DNA of 64,000 nucleotides from IMG/VR virus record IMGVR_UViG_3300031134_000001, positions 128,001-192,000 of that record, one strand, 5' to 3'. Origin of the DNA: a virus (lineage: Duplodnaviria; Caudoviricetes). This document shows, in pieces, positions 43,138 through 63,844 of this stretch. The notes beneath the pieces are model-generated. The model had not been told where the DNA came from. It did not search any database and saw nothing but the letters and a program-made list of their open reading frames with translations. Numbering within the stretch: position 1 is the stretch's first letter; each line of letters begins with the position of its first letter. Position numbers and translations under genes: made by a program.

Positions 43138-44697
43138 ATGAACTCCAATAACCAACAACAAGAACCAACCAAATACGTTTTCTCCATCGATGAGGACGGC
43201 GACATCAGCCCGCATGCAGTAAAGGCAGGCACCGCAGTGCCTGAAATCCCAGCCGGCGTTTATACGTTGGTGTATATCGAACCAATGCCTGGTCGCGGCC
43301 CGCAGCTCTATCTGCGCCCAGAAAAGAACTTCCAGATTCCAGAGCGCCTCTACGGCGACGTCAAGCTGAACGTCGATCGCTATCTGCGTTCGTACGAGAT
43401 GAACGACAAGAATCTGGGTGCGCTGTTCATCGGCGAACAAGGTTCGGGTAAAACCATGCAGCTCAAAGCACTGGCGGTGAAAGCTGTCGAGCTGAGCTAC
43501 CCTGTGATCCTGATCAACGAGGTGATTCCAGGTTCGCTCCTGAACTGGTTCCTCTCGACCATTGTTCAGCCTACGCTCGTGTGTTTCGACGAATTCGAGA
43601 AATCGTACGACACCCCCGATAAGCAACGCCCGATCCTGCAGCTGCTCGACGGCACCAACACGGGTAGCAAAAAGATGTACTGCTTCTCGGCCAACGAGCT
43701 CAAGAAGATCAGCCCGCACATGGTCAATCGCCCAAGCCGTATTCGCTATGTGCGCACGTTCCGTCGCCTGGAAATCTCCACGGTGGTGGACTACGTGCAA
43801 ACCAACCTCAAGAACTGTACGGAAGACCACGTCCGTGCGTTCATCCATCTGGCTCTGGCTGACGGTCTGGACGAAGATCGCAAGAACATGTCGAACGGCA
43901 TGAACTTCGACATGATGGCCGAATACGTGCGCGAGATGAACCAATTCCCTGGTTCGCTCAACGAGGTGCTTCACGTGATGGGGTTGAAAGGCAGCGATAC
44001 GTGGGCCCGCTTCGAAGTGAACGGCTTTGTCGACGGCGAGCGGGTGCATCATGCCATGGCGCACGGCACGCACAGCGGCGCCTACGCGGGTAGCGATGAA
44101 TGGTTGATCAACTTCAGTATCCATGTAGAAAAACTGCGTGAGAAAGCTACCGAAGATGAAGTCGACCGCTGGAAATGGGACTACGACAAAGTCGAGCTCA
44201 CCCAGCGCGATTTCAAGAGCTTTGGCGATTCGCATGATTCGCTGATCTTTGAGAAAGATGGCGTGGAATACCACCTGCGCTATATCGACTTCGAGAAATC
44301 GAACAAGCTGAAAATCAAAGTGGAGGAAACCAATTCGGGAAAGCGGCCCGCGCAGCAGCCAAAGACGGCGGCTCTGCGCGTGGAATCGGCCGCGGATTCA
44401 GTTTCCCCATGTCCCTCCCCCTTGACCACAGCTTCGTCTTCCCACTCAGCCTCTCCTTCGGAAGAATGTACCGTGAAGCCTTCGGAGACTACAAGCCAGA
44501 CGACTACGCCGATGGCGGAAATCCAAAAAACATCCGAGAATCCGACGCAAAAGGAATCGAGCAGTCAACCTCCGGAGGAAAAGAACTCGACACCGACACC
44601 AACGAGAAACTCTCTGAAGACGGTGATGATGACGACGATGACGACGAAAGAAAGCCCGAAGGATGCCTCGACTGGTCATGACCCAGATCAGTCGTAA
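43138..44697 (+). CDS. AAA+ ATPase paralogue 1 (frame-0 product, 519 aa)
   Basis: Walker A GEQGSGKT, Walker B CFDEFEK, sensor SAN, NRPSRIRY. Confidence 0.85.
   Translation: MNSNNQQQEPTKYVFSIDEDGDISPHAVKAGTAVPEIPAGVYTLVYIEPMPGRGPQLYLRPEKNFQIPERLYGDVKLNVDRYLRSYEMNDKNLGALFIGEQGSGKTMQLKALAVKAVELSYPVILINEVIPGSLLNWFLSTIVQPTLVCFDEFEKSYDTPDKQRPILQLLDGTNTGSKKMYCFSANELKKISPHMVNRPSRIRYVRTFRRLEISTVVDYVQTNLKNCTEDHVRAFIHLALADGLDEDRKNMSNGMNFDMMAEYVREMNQFPGSLNEVLHVMGLKGSDTWARFEVNGFVDGERVHHAMAHGTHSGAYAGSDEWLINFSIHVEKLREKATEDEVDRWKWDYDKVELTQRDFKSFGDSHDSLIFEKDGVEYHLRYIDFEKSNKLKIKVEETNSGKRPAQQPKTAALRVESAADSVSPCPSPLTTASSSHSASPSEECTVKPSETTSQTTTPMAEIQKTSENPTQKESSSQPPEEKNSTPTPTRNSLKTVMMTTMTTKESPKDASTGHDPDQS
44322..44380 (+). 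promoter_or_regulatory. predicted programmed -1 ribosomal frameshift cassette
   Basis: GGAGG (44322-26), in-phase G GGA AAG (44337-43), 5-nt spacer, hairpin 44349-44380. Confidence 0.65.
44340..44681 (+). CDS. alternative (-1 frame) acidic C-terminal tail of the AAA ATPase
   Basis: Open for 113 codons from the slippery site: KAARAAAKDGG...EDGDDDDDDDERKPEGCLDWS. Confidence 0.55.
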   Translation, partial: KAARAAAKDGGSARGIGRGFSFPMSLPLDHSFVFPLSLSFGRMYREAFGDYKPDDYADGGNPKNIRESDAKGIEQSTSGGKELDTDTNEKLSEDGDDDDDDDERKPEGCLDWS

Positions 44698-44790: not shown

Positions 44791-46227
44791 ATGAACATTC
44801 AAAAACAACAACGCGAAGAAGTCAAGTACGCTTTCGATATCGCAGACGACGGCGTGGTTCGTCCAATGCGTCGAGTGCGTTCGAACATGGTGGCTGAATT
44901 GCCACCGCGGGTATACCGCTTGGTTGTCGATCAGACTGGTCCGCATCTGGTGCCAGAAAACGACTTCAACATGCCGGCACGGGTGTACGGTACATCGAAC
45001 ACCTACGCGCAACGCTTTATCCGCGCATACGAGCTGGGTACCAAAAACCTCGGCGCGTTGCTGATCGGTTTGCCTGGTTCGGGTAAGACCTTGACGCTCA
45101 AGCACGTGGCCATGCTCGCGGTGCAAGCGATGATGCCGGCGATCATCGTCAACACGGCGATCTCCGGTCAGATCCTAACGCAATTCCTCTCGACCATCAC
45201 CCAGCAATGCGTGGTCTGCATGGATGAATTCGACAAGAAATACGGCGGCAAAGATTCGGACGGCGATTCGATCCCGCTGGAGATGCAAGACTCGATCCTG
45301 GAACTGCTCGATGGCGCGACCGTCGGCGAAAAGAAGATGTTCATTCTGACCGCCAACGACGACGGCAAGATCTCGCCTCTGCTCAAGGACCGTCCTAGCC
45401 GGATTCGCTACACGATCAAGTACGCGCAAATCGACCAGGACACCGTCATCGATTATGTCAGCTCCAACCTCAAGAACTGCACGGAGGATCATATCCGCGC
45501 TTTCCTGATGGTGGCCAACGCCGACCGCATGAGTCGCACCGGCATGAACTTCGATTCGATGGTCGAACTCGTGAACGAAATGAACTACTTCGAATGCTCG
45601 CTCGACGAAGCGCTCGAACTCATGCTGCGTAACGGCAAGGAATCCTTCACGTCATTTAATGTCAAGGTGTTCCGTGAAGGCGTGTGGATCGATACTTCAG
45701 CCGGCTTCGGTAGTCATAACGGCGTGTACATGACGAATGGTGACTACGTCCTCACCTTCCAAATGGTGGTGCCGTCGACGCAGGAGGATGTACCCGCCCA
45801 GCGTTACGAGGTGAGACTCACGGCTGATCATTTCGTCGGCTTCGCTGAAAGCCGTTCGGCCTTCGAGTTCAAACTCAATGAGTTCACGTTCATGCTCGAC
45901 ATGGTTGATCAAGCAACAGCCAGTCGAAATAGTACGGCTGCAAAGAACGCTTATGAACAGCGGCCTGACGTGATCGCATACAAAGAGCAGAAGCAAAAGG
46001 AGAAGGAGAAAGAAGCTGCTGAAAAGAACGCGGCAGAAAACGACGATGAAGATGATGGTCTGAAAATCCGTCGTCCGCGGATGTTCGGCATGGATCTGGA
46101 GGCCATGGGCATGGGTCGTCACCATTTGACTAGCCTTATCCGCGATTACGGGACCGAGGTGTCTTCCGATCTGTTGCCGCCGGCGATGAATTTCGGCGCG
46201 CCCGACCCTGACGACAAAGCATCATAA
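44791..46227 (+). CDS. AAA+ ATPase paralogue 2 (478 aa)
   Basis: GLPGSGKT, CMDEFDK, TAN, DRPSRIRY; collinear with 43138. Confidence 0.85.
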   Translation: MNIQKQQREEVKYAFDIADDGVVRPMRRVRSNMVAELPPRVYRLVVDQTGPHLVPENDFNMPARVYGTSNTYAQRFIRAYELGTKNLGALLIGLPGSGKTLTLKHVAMLAVQAMMPAIIVNTAISGQILTQFLSTITQQCVVCMDEFDKKYGGKDSDGDSIPLEMQDSILELLDGATVGEKKMFILTANDDGKISPLLKDRPSRIRYTIKYAQIDQDTVIDYVSSNLKNCTEDHIRAFLMVANADRMSRTGMNFDSMVELVNEMNYFECSLDEALELMLRNGKESFTSFNVKVFREGVWIDTSAGFGSHNGVYMTNGDYVLTFQMVVPSTQEDVPAQRYEVRLTADHFVGFAESRSAFEFKLNEFTFMLDMVDQATASRNSTAAKNAYEQRPDVIAYKEQKQKEKEKEAAEKNAAENDDEDDGLKIRRPRMFGMDLEAMGMGRHHLTSLIRDYGTEVSSDLLPPAMNFGAPDPDDKAS

Positions 46228-52295: not shown

Positions 52296-52880
52296 ATGGA
52301 ATACGACAAACCTCACGGCGCTACTGCGCTGATTCCGGTGCTGCGTCCTGAAAGCGCACAACACTTCGTCGACCCTAGCGACGTCGAGCCACAAGCCATC
52401 AACGACAACCTGAGTACGTCAGCGCTGCGCGTTGGTGTTCGCCTCGATCTTCTGGGTATCAGCAATACCAACGAATCGTTTGGCGCGGACGGCATCGATC
52501 CAGCCATCACCCTGGCCAAGATCTACTACCGCACCAAAAGCGGCGCCGTCCACGAAGTCGATGTGAGCGACATGCCATACAACGCCTTCGTGCCTGCGTA
52601 CCAAGGGAACTACCGCGATGTGACGGTGAACATGTCGCTGGAAGTAAGCATGCTGGGCGAACCTACCACATGGCTCGGTAAGCTGGGCAAGAAGATCGCC
52701 ATGTGGATCGACGGCGACCCTAAGGTGATGTTGCGTTTTACCGGCAACGCCAACCTGCCAATGGGTACGATCCAAGTCGACGCCGTCTCGGACCATCCGG
52801 ACGTAACGCCAATCGGTTATACGGTGTCGGCTTACCGCATCAACATGAGTCGTGTTGGTCGCAGCTGCCCTGCCATGTAA
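52296..52880 (+). CDS. stand-alone protein resembling an internal segment of the phiKZ-like major capsid protein
   Basis: LDLLGIS, D.IDPAITL..IYY, QGNYR, GNANL, GY...AYR.N..R. Confidence 0.55.
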   Translation: MEYDKPHGATALIPVLRPESAQHFVDPSDVEPQAINDNLSTSALRVGVRLDLLGISNTNESFGADGIDPAITLAKIYYRTKSGAVHEVDVSDMPYNAFVPAYQGNYRDVTVNMSLEVSMLGEPTTWLGKLGKKIAMWIDGDPKVMLRFTGNANLPMGTIQVDAVSDHPDVTPIGYTVSAYRINMSRVGRSCPAM

Positions 52881-54602: not shown

Positions 54603-56288
54603 ATGTTTAACCAACGTTTCGGCTTTACCCGTCCAGGCACCCAGAACATCGCAACTACCTGGGTCAGATCTTTCAACAGTCTCATCGCAGGTCACTCAGA
54701 CCTGCCGGATGTGTTGGTGTTCGCCCACGACCACAACACTAAACCGGATGGCTCGCCGTTGACGTCGAACCCAACCGCACGACCTTTCATTCAAACCGTG
54801 GGTGTGGCTGTTGGCGCCAACGGCGAGTGGGGTTTGGCGATCTTTGCACCACACGGCATGCTGGAATCCGCGCCGCAGAGCGAACGCGTTGACTACATGA
54901 ACAGCAGCCCGTCAGTGATGTCAGCCATTTACAAGCTGGCGGCCGAACGTAATGTCGAAGCGACAGCGATCCACTTTAACAGTGTGCTTGTCGACACGGT
55001 CGGTCTCGATCCAAACGACCCTGAGGTAGTGCGTCGGCTGCTGTCGGCGCTGCTCAACCGCGCAGAGAGCAGTCTGGGTCGTGTTCTGGCTGAACGGGAA
55101 AAGGAAGCATTGCCAGGCATGATCGACTTCAATGAAGCTCGTGGTCGCGTTGTGCTCGAACAGAACGTAAGTTACGAAAATCCAGTGCTGCGTGATCTCC
55201 TCGGCAAGATCGTCCGTAACGACTACGTCTTTACCTTGACTGTCAAAGAACCACCACGCCGTGACAGCGTGGTCGAGCCGGTGATAACGACGTTACTCAA
55301 GGTCAGCGGCTACGTTGACTTTAAGCGTGCGCCAACCGAATCGAATCCAGGCCAGCCATGGAACATCCAACCTCTGCGCTACTTGCCAGAATTCATCATT
55401 ACCGATATCGACAACGGGAGCGGTGAAATGACGGCGATGCATGAACAGCAAGCCACCATGTTCGCTATTGCCATGGTGGCGCAATACATGCGTGCGGGTC
55501 GGTGGACGGAGCGCCACATGGCGCACCTGAAAACCCACAACGAGAAAGACTTGACGTTGTTGTTCGATACTCAGCAGCGCGAAGTATTCATCCGTGAAAA
55601 ACACCAGAACGGTTACGCCGCCATGGCAGACCTGGCCAGCAAAATCCTGTCTCCTGGCTTCCTGCTGTCGATTGATATCCCGCAAAATCCAACCGGCAAC
55701 ATGGAACTCAGGACACTTTTCGAAGTTGTGGTGCGCCACTCGACGTCGATCGTATCGATGTTCAATGATGTCGCAGCTAGCCTGGGTCGGGACGACTACT
55801 ACGGTCGTTATGCTAATCCTAACGACCTTGGTAACGCCTACTTGCCCTCGGTGATGGTGCCGATGGGTTCCATGGTTGTTGTCGAGAAAGCTGGTAAGTT
55901 CGAGTGTGATGTTCGTCAGATGGACACGCTGCGCGCTTTGCATGTTTGCGAAGAAGCAGTTAGTGCGGGCAGTAACCGCGTGAACATCCAGAAGATGGCA
56001 TCGAATTATCTGGACCTGTTCTATCTGCAACATACGTCCAACGCTCATCGTGGTCAGTCTGGTCCATCGACGTTCGGTCGCGGCGGCCACATGGCTTACG
56101 AGCACGCAGCCTTTCTGAAGCATGTGAGCATGACGCCGGAATACTACAATGTGGCGCATCGCACAACGTTCAATGGCCAGTTTGTCAACCTCGTGGTGAA
56201 CTTGTTGGGTTCCAGCGGTTTGGACATCCGAACAGACGACCAGACGAAGGCTTTGCTGACGGCTGACCATCAGGCGATCGTGCTGTAA
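54603..56288 (+). CDS. chimallin (ChmA, nuclear shell protein)-like protein, truncated at the C-terminus
   Basis: Ordered motifs match remembered ChmA: RLL..LLN, D..G..VR.D, V.G.VD..R.P, IITD, F.I, RW, SID, MG, D.R..D.L.AL, A.R.TFN..F, GL.I..D. Confidence 0.7.
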   Translation: MFNQRFGFTRPGTQNIATTWVRSFNSLIAGHSDLPDVLVFAHDHNTKPDGSPLTSNPTARPFIQTVGVAVGANGEWGLAIFAPHGMLESAPQSERVDYMNSSPSVMSAIYKLAAERNVEATAIHFNSVLVDTVGLDPNDPEVVRRLLSALLNRAESSLGRVLAEREKEALPGMIDFNEARGRVVLEQNVSYENPVLRDLLGKIVRNDYVFTLTVKEPPRRDSVVEPVITTLLKVSGYVDFKRAPTESNPGQPWNIQPLRYLPEFIITDIDNGSGEMTAMHEQQATMFAIAMVAQYMRAGRWTERHMAHLKTHNEKDLTLLFDTQQREVFIREKHQNGYAAMADLASKILSPGFLLSIDIPQNPTGNMELRTLFEVVVRHSTSIVSMFNDVAASLGRDDYYGRYANPNDLGNAYLPSVMVPMGSMVVVEKAGKFECDVRQMDTLRALHVCEEAVSAGSNRVNIQKMASNYLDLFYLQHTSNAHRGQSGPSTFGRGGHMAYEHAAFLKHVSMTPEYYNVAHRTTFNGQFVNLVVNLLGSSGLDIRTDDQTKALLTADHQAIVL

Positions 56289-62729: not shown

Positions 62730-62815
62730 GGGCGGATAGGCAAGCGGTCAAAGCCAGCTGACTGTAAATCAGCCCCCTCTGTGGTTCGTAGGTTCAAATC
62801 CTTCTCCGCCCACCA
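62730..62815 (+). tRNA. tRNA-Tyr (GUA)
   Basis: GGGCGGA/TCCGCCC acceptor, anticodon GTA at 62764-66, long variable arm, encoded CCA. Confidence 0.95.
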
Positions 62816-62820
62816 AGTTA

Positions 62821-62934
62821 GGAAACGCATGAGCGACCTCTAGAAGGGGCGCAGTGAATCAAACCCTGAGAAGGGTAGCCGAGCGGAAAGTAACATCTAG
62901 GCGATGGTAAGGTGAAATCTGCTCATGTGTTTCC
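62821..62934 (+). ncRNA. 114-nt multi-hairpin RNA closed by a 14-bp stem
   Basis: ggaaacgcatgagc/gctcatgtgtttcc; internal accct-gaga-agggt GNRA hairpin. Confidence 0.55.
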
Positions 62935-62953
62935 CTCTGTTTCAAGTTTCACC

Positions 62954-63083
62954 GGGTATGTAGCTCAGTTGGTAGAGCAAGGCTCTTCGTGGGAATGCGC
63001 ACCCCCACACCGGCTTAATAGCCGGCGCCGAAAGGCAGCGACCAAAGCCTAGGTCCTGGGTTCGAGTCCCGGCATATCCACCA
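62954..63083 (+). ncRNA. tRNA-like RNA with Ala identity and a 61-nt structured anticodon loop
   Basis: Canonical acceptor, D and T arms and CCA; G3.U70 and A73; stem AGGCT/AGCCT encloses three hairpins. Confidence 0.8.
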
Positions 63084-63265
63084 AACACAGTAGTAAGAAA
63101 GAGCACAAACCCAACTTACGGCTTCACCACATTCGATGTGGATCTCTCGTAACATCCTCCCGTGCCGAGTCGGCTCTTGAAGTCGGCGGGATATGAGGTG
63201 CCCGACGCGTTCGGAGTGTTGGAACTCCCCTTGCCTGAAAAGGCGTTTAGTAGCAAAGTTTCAAT

Positions 63266-63414
63266 GGCTAAGATGGTGAAGTGGAAGACACAGCTATTCA
63301 CTCCTAGGTTCAGTGAGTAGTATTTGAAAGACAACTCTGTGCGATTTAGGGGAAACCTTATTGGTCAAACTGCTTGTCTAGTAGAACGGGGGTTCGATTC
63401 CTCCTCTTCAGCCT
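63266..63414 (+). ncRNA. degenerate tRNA-like RNA with large internal insert
   Basis: GGCTAAGA/TCTT(C)AGCC, D-like GGTGAAGTGGAAGACAC, T arm GGGGG-TTCGATT-CCTCC; no CCA. Confidence 0.45.
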
Positions 63415-63435
63415 ACTGTTTCAATGTAGTTAGCA

Positions 63436-63556
63436 GGGCATGTAGCTCAGTGGTAGAGCACCGTCTAGTGTGGTTCAACTCCACACCGTTCCACACCTGG
63501 GGCGGCACTGGTTAAATTGACGGAGGTCTTGGGTTCAATTCCTGACATGTCCACCA
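63436..63556 (+). ncRNA. tRNA-like RNA with Ala identity and a 53-nt structured anticodon loop
   Basis: GGGCATG/CATGTCC (G3.U70), A73, CCA; stem CCGTC/GACGG encloses two hairpins. Confidence 0.8.
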
Positions 63557-63590
63557 GAATTCATCGTAGTACAAACAACAGGAGAAGATC

Positions 63591-63746
63591 ATGAAACGCA
63601 TGAGTAAGCCATACCCAGAATCGTCGACCCGTCAAGCTGAACGCGGCCTGCGTCAAGGTCTGCACAGCATCCAAGTCCCGGTCGCTGGCAAGCACAACAC
63701 GATCCTCCAGACCAAACCATCGAGCGCACGCGTCTCGATGAACTAA
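63591..63746 (+). CDS. small basic protein (51 aa) inside the tRNA cluster
   Basis: SD aggag with AAC leader. MKRMSKPYPESSTRQAERGLRQG... Confidence 0.55.
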   Translation: MKRMSKPYPESSTRQAERGLRQGLHSIQVPVAGKHNTILQTKPSSARVSMN

Positions 63747-63751
63747 ACGCG

Positions 63752-63844
63752 GGAAGCGTGGCCGAGCCGGTTTAAGGCACTGGTTTGCTAAACCAGCGTA
63801 GGGAGCAATCCCTACCGTGAGTTCGAATCTCACCGCTTCCGCCA
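63752..63844 (+). tRNA. tRNA-Ser (GCU)
   Basis: GGAAGCG/CGCTTCC, anticodon GCT at 63787-89, long variable arm, G73, CCA. Confidence 0.95.

Follow-up and report, generated by a model that had tools for sequence, protein, structure and literature searches.

A probable programmed -1 ribosomal frameshift of the dnaX type in the AAA-type ATPase gene of an uncultured jumbo phage

Does the gene of the AAA-type ATPase P0001, carried by an uncultured jumbo phage, specify one protein, or are two proteins with different C-terminal tails made from it? The question is raised by a slippery heptanucleotide, G GGA AAG, which lies in phase in this gene within a stretch of 64,000 nucleotides (hereafter the window), comprising bases 128001-192000 of a 271,026-bp IMG/VR record with direct terminal repeats. 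A preliminary description of the window had proposed a -1 frameshift cassette in the style of dnaX with two alternative tails, and this proposal is supported by comparisons of the heptamer, of the Shine-Dalgarno-like (SD-like) element in front of it, of the -1 open reading frames (ORFs) behind it, and of the two relatives P0012 and P0005. On this comparative sequence evidence, we consider it very probable that the site is a selected and functional programmed -1 ribosomal frameshift of the dnaX type. The slippery site is kept at the point where the tail of the ATPase follows its folded core in the window and in nine of ten relatives, and therefore two versions of the tail are most likely made.

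The heptamer is the single in-phase sequence of the X XXY YYZ type in the P0001 gene, and G_GGA_AAG is listed among the highly shift-prone sites in E. coli (PMC5009743). Its coordinates were confirmed as first described, and so were the lengths of 519 amino acids (aa) for the frame-0 product and 514 aa (402 + 112) for the -1 product, with stops ending at 44697 and 44681 (Table 1). The unshifted protein has a 117-aa tail rich in Ser, Thr and Pro, which ends in GHDPDQS, and the -1 tail is rich in aromatic residues and combines a GRGFSF motif, an acidic run and an LDWS end. At the junction, NSGK continues as RPAQQ in frame 0 and as AARAAA in the -1 frame, and the previously given junction peptides NSGKRPA and NSGKAAR were reproduced from the sequence. 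Trypsin cuts at K402, and the junction is spanned by Glu-C peptides (TNSGKAARAAAKD versus TNSGKRPAQQPKTAALRVE); GFSFPMSLPLDHSFVFPLSLSFGR is an example of a tryptic peptide specific to the -1 product. Transcriptional slippage was rejected as an origin of the second product because the runs are only three bases long.

One line of evidence comes from codon choice among relatives. A protein search returned ten relatives at 46-59% identity to P0001, originating from different metagenome samples and assemblers, and the DNA of all ten was compared (two of them, P0009 and P0010, are 86% identical to each other). Gly401-Lys402 is invariant in the protein alignment and the flanking 20 residues vary, and at the DNA level nine of the ten relatives share an unchanged, in-phase G GGA AAG, which makes 10 of the 11 clade members with the window included. 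GGA is the rarest glycine codon in the clade genes (30/396, 7.6%), and 10 of these 30 occurrences fall at the heptamer column, outside of which GGA makes up ~5% of glycine codons. At 14 other invariant Gly columns and six other invariant Lys columns synonymous codons are used freely, the synonymous sites being saturated, and the chance of finding G GGA AAG given x-Gly-Lys is ~0.015 per sequence. Judged by these codon counts, retention of the heptamer is not drift, even if shared ancestry is allowed for.

The heptamer-less relative, P0005, reads gcA GGT AAG at this position, lacks an SD-like element (-0.5 kcal/mol) and meets a -1 stop in the next codon; heptamer, SD-like element and open -1 frame thus appear to have been lost together, and P0005 may serve as a natural control. 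In three family members that are more distant, Gly-Lys is retained where core and tail meet, written as atG GGC AAG, C GGT AAA and C GGA AAG, and their -1 frame shuts at once. Since they keep the dipeptide without the heptamer, Gly-Lys would predate the slippery site, and the choice of the rare codon is a trait of the clade with the open -1 frame. Scans of viral and metagenome contigs gave three loci, most relatives having been retrieved singly. A library of 50%-identity representatives yielded no further heptamer-bearing members of the clade, a nucleotide search of GenBank phages gave no match, and tblastn of GenBank phages found only relatives below 35% identity, which end right past the core, without tail or heptamer.

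The -1 frame behind the site is open for 114, 45, 60, 16, 46, 63, 40, 41, 29 and 39 codons in the 10 heptamer-bearing genes. Openings of at least 39 codons are present in 8 of the 10 against a background probability of 0.26 (binomial ~5e-4 before allowing for relatedness), and within the long ORFs of this genome, 1.1% of positions have a -1 frame open for at least 114 codons. When coding potential was scored as leave-one-out codon-usage log-odds, by which gene bodies reach ~+0.9 in frame 0 and ~-1.2 in the -1 frame, the tails scored from -0.44 to +0.78 in the -1 frame, and the window tail scored +0.28 to +0.33 in the -1 frame versus -0.06 to -0.28 in frame 0. By this measure the tails show the pattern expected of dual coding. 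In P0012, frame 0 ends five codons past the heptamer (GKTTGVR, then the stop), and the -1 frame runs on for 37 codons in otherwise non-coding DNA, which gene callers regard as intergenic. This extension has a coding score of +0.78 and resembles its -1 counterpart in P0010 (z = 3.8), at an identity of only 61% between the two proteins. Such conservation appears explicable by nothing except translation in the -1 frame, and we regard this relative as decisive. Further pairs of similar -1 tails are P0004 with P0008 (z = 6.2) and P0001 with P0011 (z = 3.6).

In composition, the -1 tails hold 9-21% aromatic residues versus 0-7% in the Ser/Thr/Pro-rich frame-0 tails. A motif of the form GR[GS]-x(1-4)-[FYW] is present in five of the ten -1 tails, as GRGFSF (window), GRGIRDYF, GRSIRDF, GRGASIPY and GRGLPYF, and is absent from the 11 frame-0 tails of the clade and from 4,318 aa of -1 translations of gene bodies. 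Outside the clade, 5 of 19 family members carry the motif, with x(0-4), in their frame-0 tails (GRGY, GRGMPY, GRGAAYGF, GRGNW and GRSY), with two matches in 6,851 aa of the bodies of those members. The tails had been described as being of equal length, which holds for the window (117 vs. 112 aa) and does not hold for the relatives, whose frame-0 tails measure 5-153 aa and -1 tails 14-61 aa. Nor could the reported resemblance of the -1 tail to the ENDDEDDG...RMFG end of the paralogue P0002 be upheld, as the BLASTP match is not significant (E = 2.8), and the likeness is at most one of short motifs. The tails of P0009 and P0010 are ~67% identical in frame 0 and ~59% in the -1 frame, and the two frames are not separable thereby. 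The C-terminal Trp of several -1 tails was rejected as independent evidence: the TGG TAA of P0007, P0009 and P0010 arises when a conserved frame-0 Gly-Asn (GGT AAT) is read in the -1 frame, so it represents a single shared feature.

Within the window tail, a run of GAT/GAC codons at 44612-44647 is read as poly-Asp in the -1 frame and as Met/Thr repeats in frame 0. In read mapping, many unrelated metagenome contigs match this run at high depth, a coverage artefact of low complexity.

Signals that could stimulate a shift are found on both sides of the heptamer. The duplex of the window GGAGG with the anti-SD sequence has an energy of -9.3 kcal/mol (background fraction 0.005), and all 10 heptamer-bearing genes have GGAGG, AGGAG, GGAG or AGGA 8-16 nucleotides (nt) 5′ of the heptamer, the distance being exactly 10 nt in five of them. 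Their anti-SD duplex energies, from -5.7 to -11.8 kcal/mol, belong to the best 0-8% of all positions in the clade genes, and nine of the ten to the best 3%. Downstream, the strands CGCGCAG-C-AGCC and GGCT-CTGCGCG form the core hairpin of the window after a spacer of 5 nt. RNAfold reproduces this hairpin and adds an outer helix, CGGCC (44344-48) with GGCCG (44388-92), the 57-nt stretch folding at -26.5 kcal/mol; the constrained hairpin alone has -21.1 kcal/mol, which is in the top 0.7% of the position-matched background. Position and spacing of both elements in the window were found to be as the preliminary description gives them, but its view of the hairpin as part of a complete cassette does not extend to the clade. 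The hairpin reaches the top 3% of the matched background in the window, P0004, P0009, P0010 and P0012, and is ordinary in the other five heptamer genes; therefore it would be a lineage-specific addition and not a defining part of the site. Across the clade, the tail sequences do not align with one another.

In P0009 and P0010, ~55 nt after the heptamer are near-identical (L010:3667-3725 and L011:2908-2966), and the 27 nt that precede it show many differences. Interleaved GGGG...CCCCC and CGCC...GGCG segments in these two genes could form a putative H-type pseudoknot.

Table 1. Coordinates and C-terminal sequences of the features discussed, numbered from the first base of the window.
Feature	Position	Strand	Remarks
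Zero-frame ORF, AAA-type ATPase P0001	43138..44697	+	519 aa; frame-0 stop 44695-97
Internal SD-like GGAGG	44322..44326	+	10 nt (AAACCAATTC) 5′ of heptamer; putative 5′ stimulator
Slippery heptamer G GGA AAG, in phase	44337..44343	+	codons 400-402 tcG GGA AAG = Ser-Gly-Lys; 44337 is a third codon position
-1 frame tail	44343..44681	+	112 aa after K402; TGA 44679-81; begins AARAAAKDGGSARGIGRGFSF, ends DGDDDDDDDERKPEGCLDWS
Downstream stem-loop	44344..44392	+	core hairpin 44349-44380: 11 bp, one bulged C, 9-nt loop; putative 3′ stimulator
GRGFSF in the -1 frame	44388..44405	+	motif GR[GS]-x(0-4)-aromatic
Frame-0 extreme C-terminus GHDPDQS	44674..44694	+	resembles paralogue end GAPDPDDKAS and ends of P0003 and P0006
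Tandem paralogue P0002	44791..46227	+	478 aa; 42% identity to P0001; single-frame tail; without in-phase slippery heptamer
Ends before stop, window	46195-46224 (paralogue)		ATPase frame 0 GHDPDQS; paralogue GAPDPDDKAS
Ends before stop, L010			ATPase frame 0 SYGTNG; paralogue TGTNG
Ends before stop, L002			ATPase frame 0 QSYGT; paralogue KTGTDS
Ends before stop, L012			ATPase frame 0 RSGTNG; paralogue NGTYDS
Phage tRNA cluster, 7 genes	62730-63844, on to G000:C1:194837 beyond the window		Tyr, Ser, Gln, Asn, His, Thr, Leu

The frame-0 tail also bears marks of selection. In their final 5-8 residues, the frame-0 ATPase and the tandem paralogue vary together from one phage to the next (Table 1), which suggests that both proteins may bind the same co-evolving partner through their C-termini. 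In our view, frame 0 is thus probably functional as well, and with the evidence for the -1 frame added to the co-varying frame-0 ends, both products therefore appear to be under selection.

Several other explanations of the same arrangement have to be considered. Internal SD-like sequences and downstream hairpins can slow ribosomes, although this is debated, and GGAGG-N10-GGGAAAG could be a signal for translational pausing or attenuation at the core-tail boundary, serving for example co-translational folding or assembly, with an incidentally open -1 frame and no functional shifted protein. The position of the site exactly at the end of the predicted fold would fit such a role, as would the several -1 tails that are short or unconserved. 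A slippery heptamer, however, is not required for pausing, and nevertheless 10 of 11 genes have kept both the rare GGA and the G at the third codon position before it; moreover, the -1 ORFs exceed the background length and score as coding, the -1 extension of P0012 is conserved past the frame-0 stop, and loss of the heptamer in P0005 coincides with the immediate -1 stop. On balance we hold a pause signal to be improbable. It could also be imagined that the -1 frame represents a small overlapping gene in its own right, with internal initiation from GGAGG, given the good SD-like element upstream and an open, coding-like frame. What is missing for this is a start: the -1 frame of the window contains no ATG, GTG or TTG from the preceding stop to 44409, 83 nt past the SD-like element, no separate SD precedes the ATG at 44409, and no start codon is conserved between SD-like element and heptamer in the relatives. 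Such a gene would also leave the conservation of the heptamer itself unexplained, and we consider it very improbable. As no start codon precedes 44409 in this frame, the -1 tail of the window would be reachable only by frameshifting.

A trivial origin would be the splitting of a single-frame tail, either by an error of one base in sequencing or assembly or by a frameshift mutation that happened recently. Both frames are open and the -1 frame of the window outscores frame 0 in the tail, as a 1-nt indel at the heptamer would bring about, but the same arrangement is found in ten independent assemblies from different samples and assemblers, and contigs of three related strains (90-97% identity) span the site without an indel. 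The frame-0 end, furthermore, is conserved and co-varies with the end of the paralogue, and GGG and AAA runs are not error-prone in Illumina data. Tail indels of 12, 3 and 3 nt in the three strains preserve both frames, and no substitution within 44320-44384 is among the differences listed (the best-supported 40 of 90). An extra base in relatives that fuses the -1 tail in frame, named in the preliminary description as an observation that would speak against frameshifting, was not found, the strains and the ten assemblies being in agreement. By these comparisons a sequencing error appears excluded, and we assign a negligible probability to an indel origin of either kind.

The programmed frameshift is therefore preferred here, but a number of observations weigh against it. 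tRNA-Lys and tRNA-Gly, the transfer RNAs (tRNAs) that would slip, are absent among the seven phage tRNAs, and the shiftiness of AAG depends on the tRNA-Lys set of the host; as the phage encodes no tRNA-Lys of its own, it is the host set that matters. The SD-like elements sit in a Glu-rich helix, whose GAG/GAA codons could account for part of their frequency. The hairpin of the window has a z of only -0.96 against shuffles of its own GC-rich stretch, and a hairpin 3-8 nt past the heptamer is strong in only 5 of the 10 genes. With regard to the clade, P0009 and P0010 are not independent at their 86% identity, the -1 tails are poorly conserved overall, with only 16 codons in P0006, and the P0007 tail is unlike those of P0009 and P0010 in spite of gene bodies that are ~70% identical. 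Finally, the GRG motif was defined post hoc, and the sequence was in none of the RNA runs searched.

According to the mechanism that we propose, the internal GGAGG would pair with the anti-SD of the 16S ribosomal RNA in the elongating ribosome and hold it at codons 400-402, and the GC-rich stem-loop 5 nt downstream would resist unwinding and likewise hold the ribosome at tcG GGA AAG. In a fraction of ribosomes, tRNA-Gly and tRNA-Lys would then re-pair one base back, from GGA to GGG and from AAG to AAA, and decoding would continue in the -1 frame. In lambda, where stimulators are absent, shifting at this heptamer amounts to a few percent, and stimulators of the dnaX type raise shifting to tens of percent (PMC5009743). 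Both products would share residues 1-402, which represent the whole folded part, and would differ in their tails. The likely purpose of the frameshift would be to keep subunits that bear different C-terminal docking peptides at a constant ratio within a single ATPase assembly. Docking on partners by way of C-terminal peptides is common among classical AAA proteins and is established for the proteasomal ATPases, which serve here as an analogy only. It is also possible, although we advance it as a tentative and rather doubtful extension, that the frameshift splits the GRG-aromatic motif and the C-terminal (GTNG/DPD) docking motif between subunits, the RNA signals rather than gene dosage fixing the stoichiometry of a ring resembling Bcs1 or the proteasomal ATPases, possibly a hetero-ring with the paralogue. 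On this view, other family members would bear both docking-type motifs on a single tail. If true, the split motifs would be a new way to build an asymmetric AAA machine.

As for the protein itself, P0001 matches phrog_2376 'ATPase' in PHROGs (E 1.6e-59), and PF00004 (Pfam AAA), the sole Pfam family over threshold, is passed narrowly (22.2 bits vs. a cut-off of 21.2), P0002 reaching 43.4 bits. The Walker A motif of P0001 is GEQGSGKT, and the layout consists of an N-terminal beta domain, the AAA module, a C-terminal beta domain and a helix at residues 385-400, with disorder predicted from residue 401. The AlphaFold2 model, built on an alignment of 11 sequences, has a mean predicted local distance difference test score (pLDDT) of 66.9, being folded through helix 385-400 and having a pLDDT of <50 from residue 401. 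The heptamer falls at the core-tail junction of this predicted fold, and therefore the shift would swap the disordered tail only. In a Foldseek search with the model, the AAA module was nearest to classical-clade ATPases (Bcs1, proteasomal Rpt/PAN/Mpa, FtsH and Vps4), the top 17 matches being Bcs1 and proteasomal Rpt and the first RFC subunit appearing at rank 49; the query-normalised template modelling score is only ~0.3 because the alignment covers the AAA module alone. A PDB sequence search found no relatives of P0001, and NCBIfam gave sub-threshold matches only, none of them informative. Membership in the DnaX/clamp-loader group was rejected on the results from Pfam, NCBIfam, PDB sequences and Foldseek, and the paralogue P0002 has a weak match to phrog_168 (clamp loader, E 6.6e-5). 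No cellular function could be assigned to P0001 from Pfam, PHROGs, NCBIfam, the PDB sequence search or Foldseek.

The neighbours of P0001 are the paralogue, DHFR and genes of unknown function, and the phage sequence is present in metagenomes from phyllosphere, straw, dairy and wastewater. At 52296-52880 of the window, a free-standing ORF of 194 aa matches the major head protein family phrog_3231 (E 4e-19) over profile positions 224-402 of 746, and at 54603-56288 there is an ORF of 561 aa without a PHROG match at E <= 0.001. In two loci of relatives (L009:700-2412 and L010:1-1266), the ATPase is preceded at a short distance by a Peptidase_S8 + DUF4214 gene, which is not adjacent to the ATPase gene in the window. 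A genome-wide scan revealed no second in-phase NNNAAAG heptamer with an SD-like element and a long -1 ORF in a credible gene. In-phase CCCAAAG and TTTAAAG occur beyond the window, at G000:C1:193534 (+) and G000:C1:31315 (-), where the -1 frame is open for 140 and 797 codons, respectively, and the ORFs of at least 100 aa that contain them are most likely spurious frames overlapping real genes.

In the literature searched, no description was found of frameshifting in this phage ATPase family or in ATPases of jumbo phages. Apart from tail chaperones, insertion sequences and dnaX, bacteria and phages provide few well-supported -1 frameshifts, and the comparative support is unusually clean in the present case. 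The clade offers a compact natural series for recoding research: the heptamer stays constant, and the SD spacing (8-16 nt) and the strength of the hairpin differ from gene to gene. In the annotation of jumbo phages, a second product of this ATPase would currently be missed. The two tails also provide a handle on phrog_2376, an uncharacterised and widespread phage ATPase family, because they are candidate partner-binding peptides.

With respect to known systems, the mechanism would be dnaX-like and as such established, and what would be new is the gene family, the exchange of one long tail for another and a possible distribution of the two tail motifs over the two frames. The closest likeness is to E. 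coli dnaX with its products tau and gamma, where A AAA AAG is preceded by an SD-like element 10 nt upstream and followed by a stem-loop ~6 nt downstream. The same three-part architecture is present here, with the same SD spacing of 10 nt, a similar hairpin spacing of 5 nt and AAG, read by tRNA-Lys, as the A-site codon. Both genes code for P-loop AAA-type ATPases, the dnaX product being oligomeric, and in both the shift lies past the ATPase core and alters only the C-terminal part. P0012, in which frame 0 stops right after the site and the longer product would be obtained by shifting, mirrors the 'reversed' dnaX arrangement (PMC5009743). On the other hand, the P-site codon is GGA here and AAA in dnaX, P0001 is not a DnaX/clamp-loader homologue, its nearest folds being Bcs1 and proteasomal ATPases, and the window has two long tails of 117 and 112 aa, neither of them truncated, as opposed to tau and the short gamma. 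The hairpin, too, differs in not being conserved across the phage ATPase clade.

The G/GT tail assembly chaperone of lambda has the identical heptamer, is likewise encoded by a phage gene and consists of two proteins that share their N-terminal part and are made in a fixed ratio. The lambda site shifts at ~4% and has equivalents in most tailed phages; to our knowledge, neither SD nor hairpin stimulators are needed there, whereas both stimulators are present in the window cassette. P0001 as a chaperone of this kind was ruled out by its identity as a 519-aa AAA ATPase and by its gene neighbours, since it is a non-structural ATPase and not a chaperone pair between tail tube and tape measure genes. 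Magnesium chelatase subunits belong to the AAA+ ATPase superfamily. The -1 frameshift in magnesium chelatase was found through conservation and confirmed in reporter assays, with efficiencies of up to 63% (Antonov et al. 2013, PMC3711429), but it concerns a cellular gene with another slippery site and a protein unrelated to the phage ATPase family, and it fuses two domains that form a single ORF in other species. The OrfA-OrfAB frameshift of IS3/IS911 (A AAA AAG) presents the same combination of heptamer, upstream SD and downstream structure on bacterial ribosomes; in that case, however, the transposase fusion gains a catalytic domain, whereas the phage ATPase would swap a disordered tail only.

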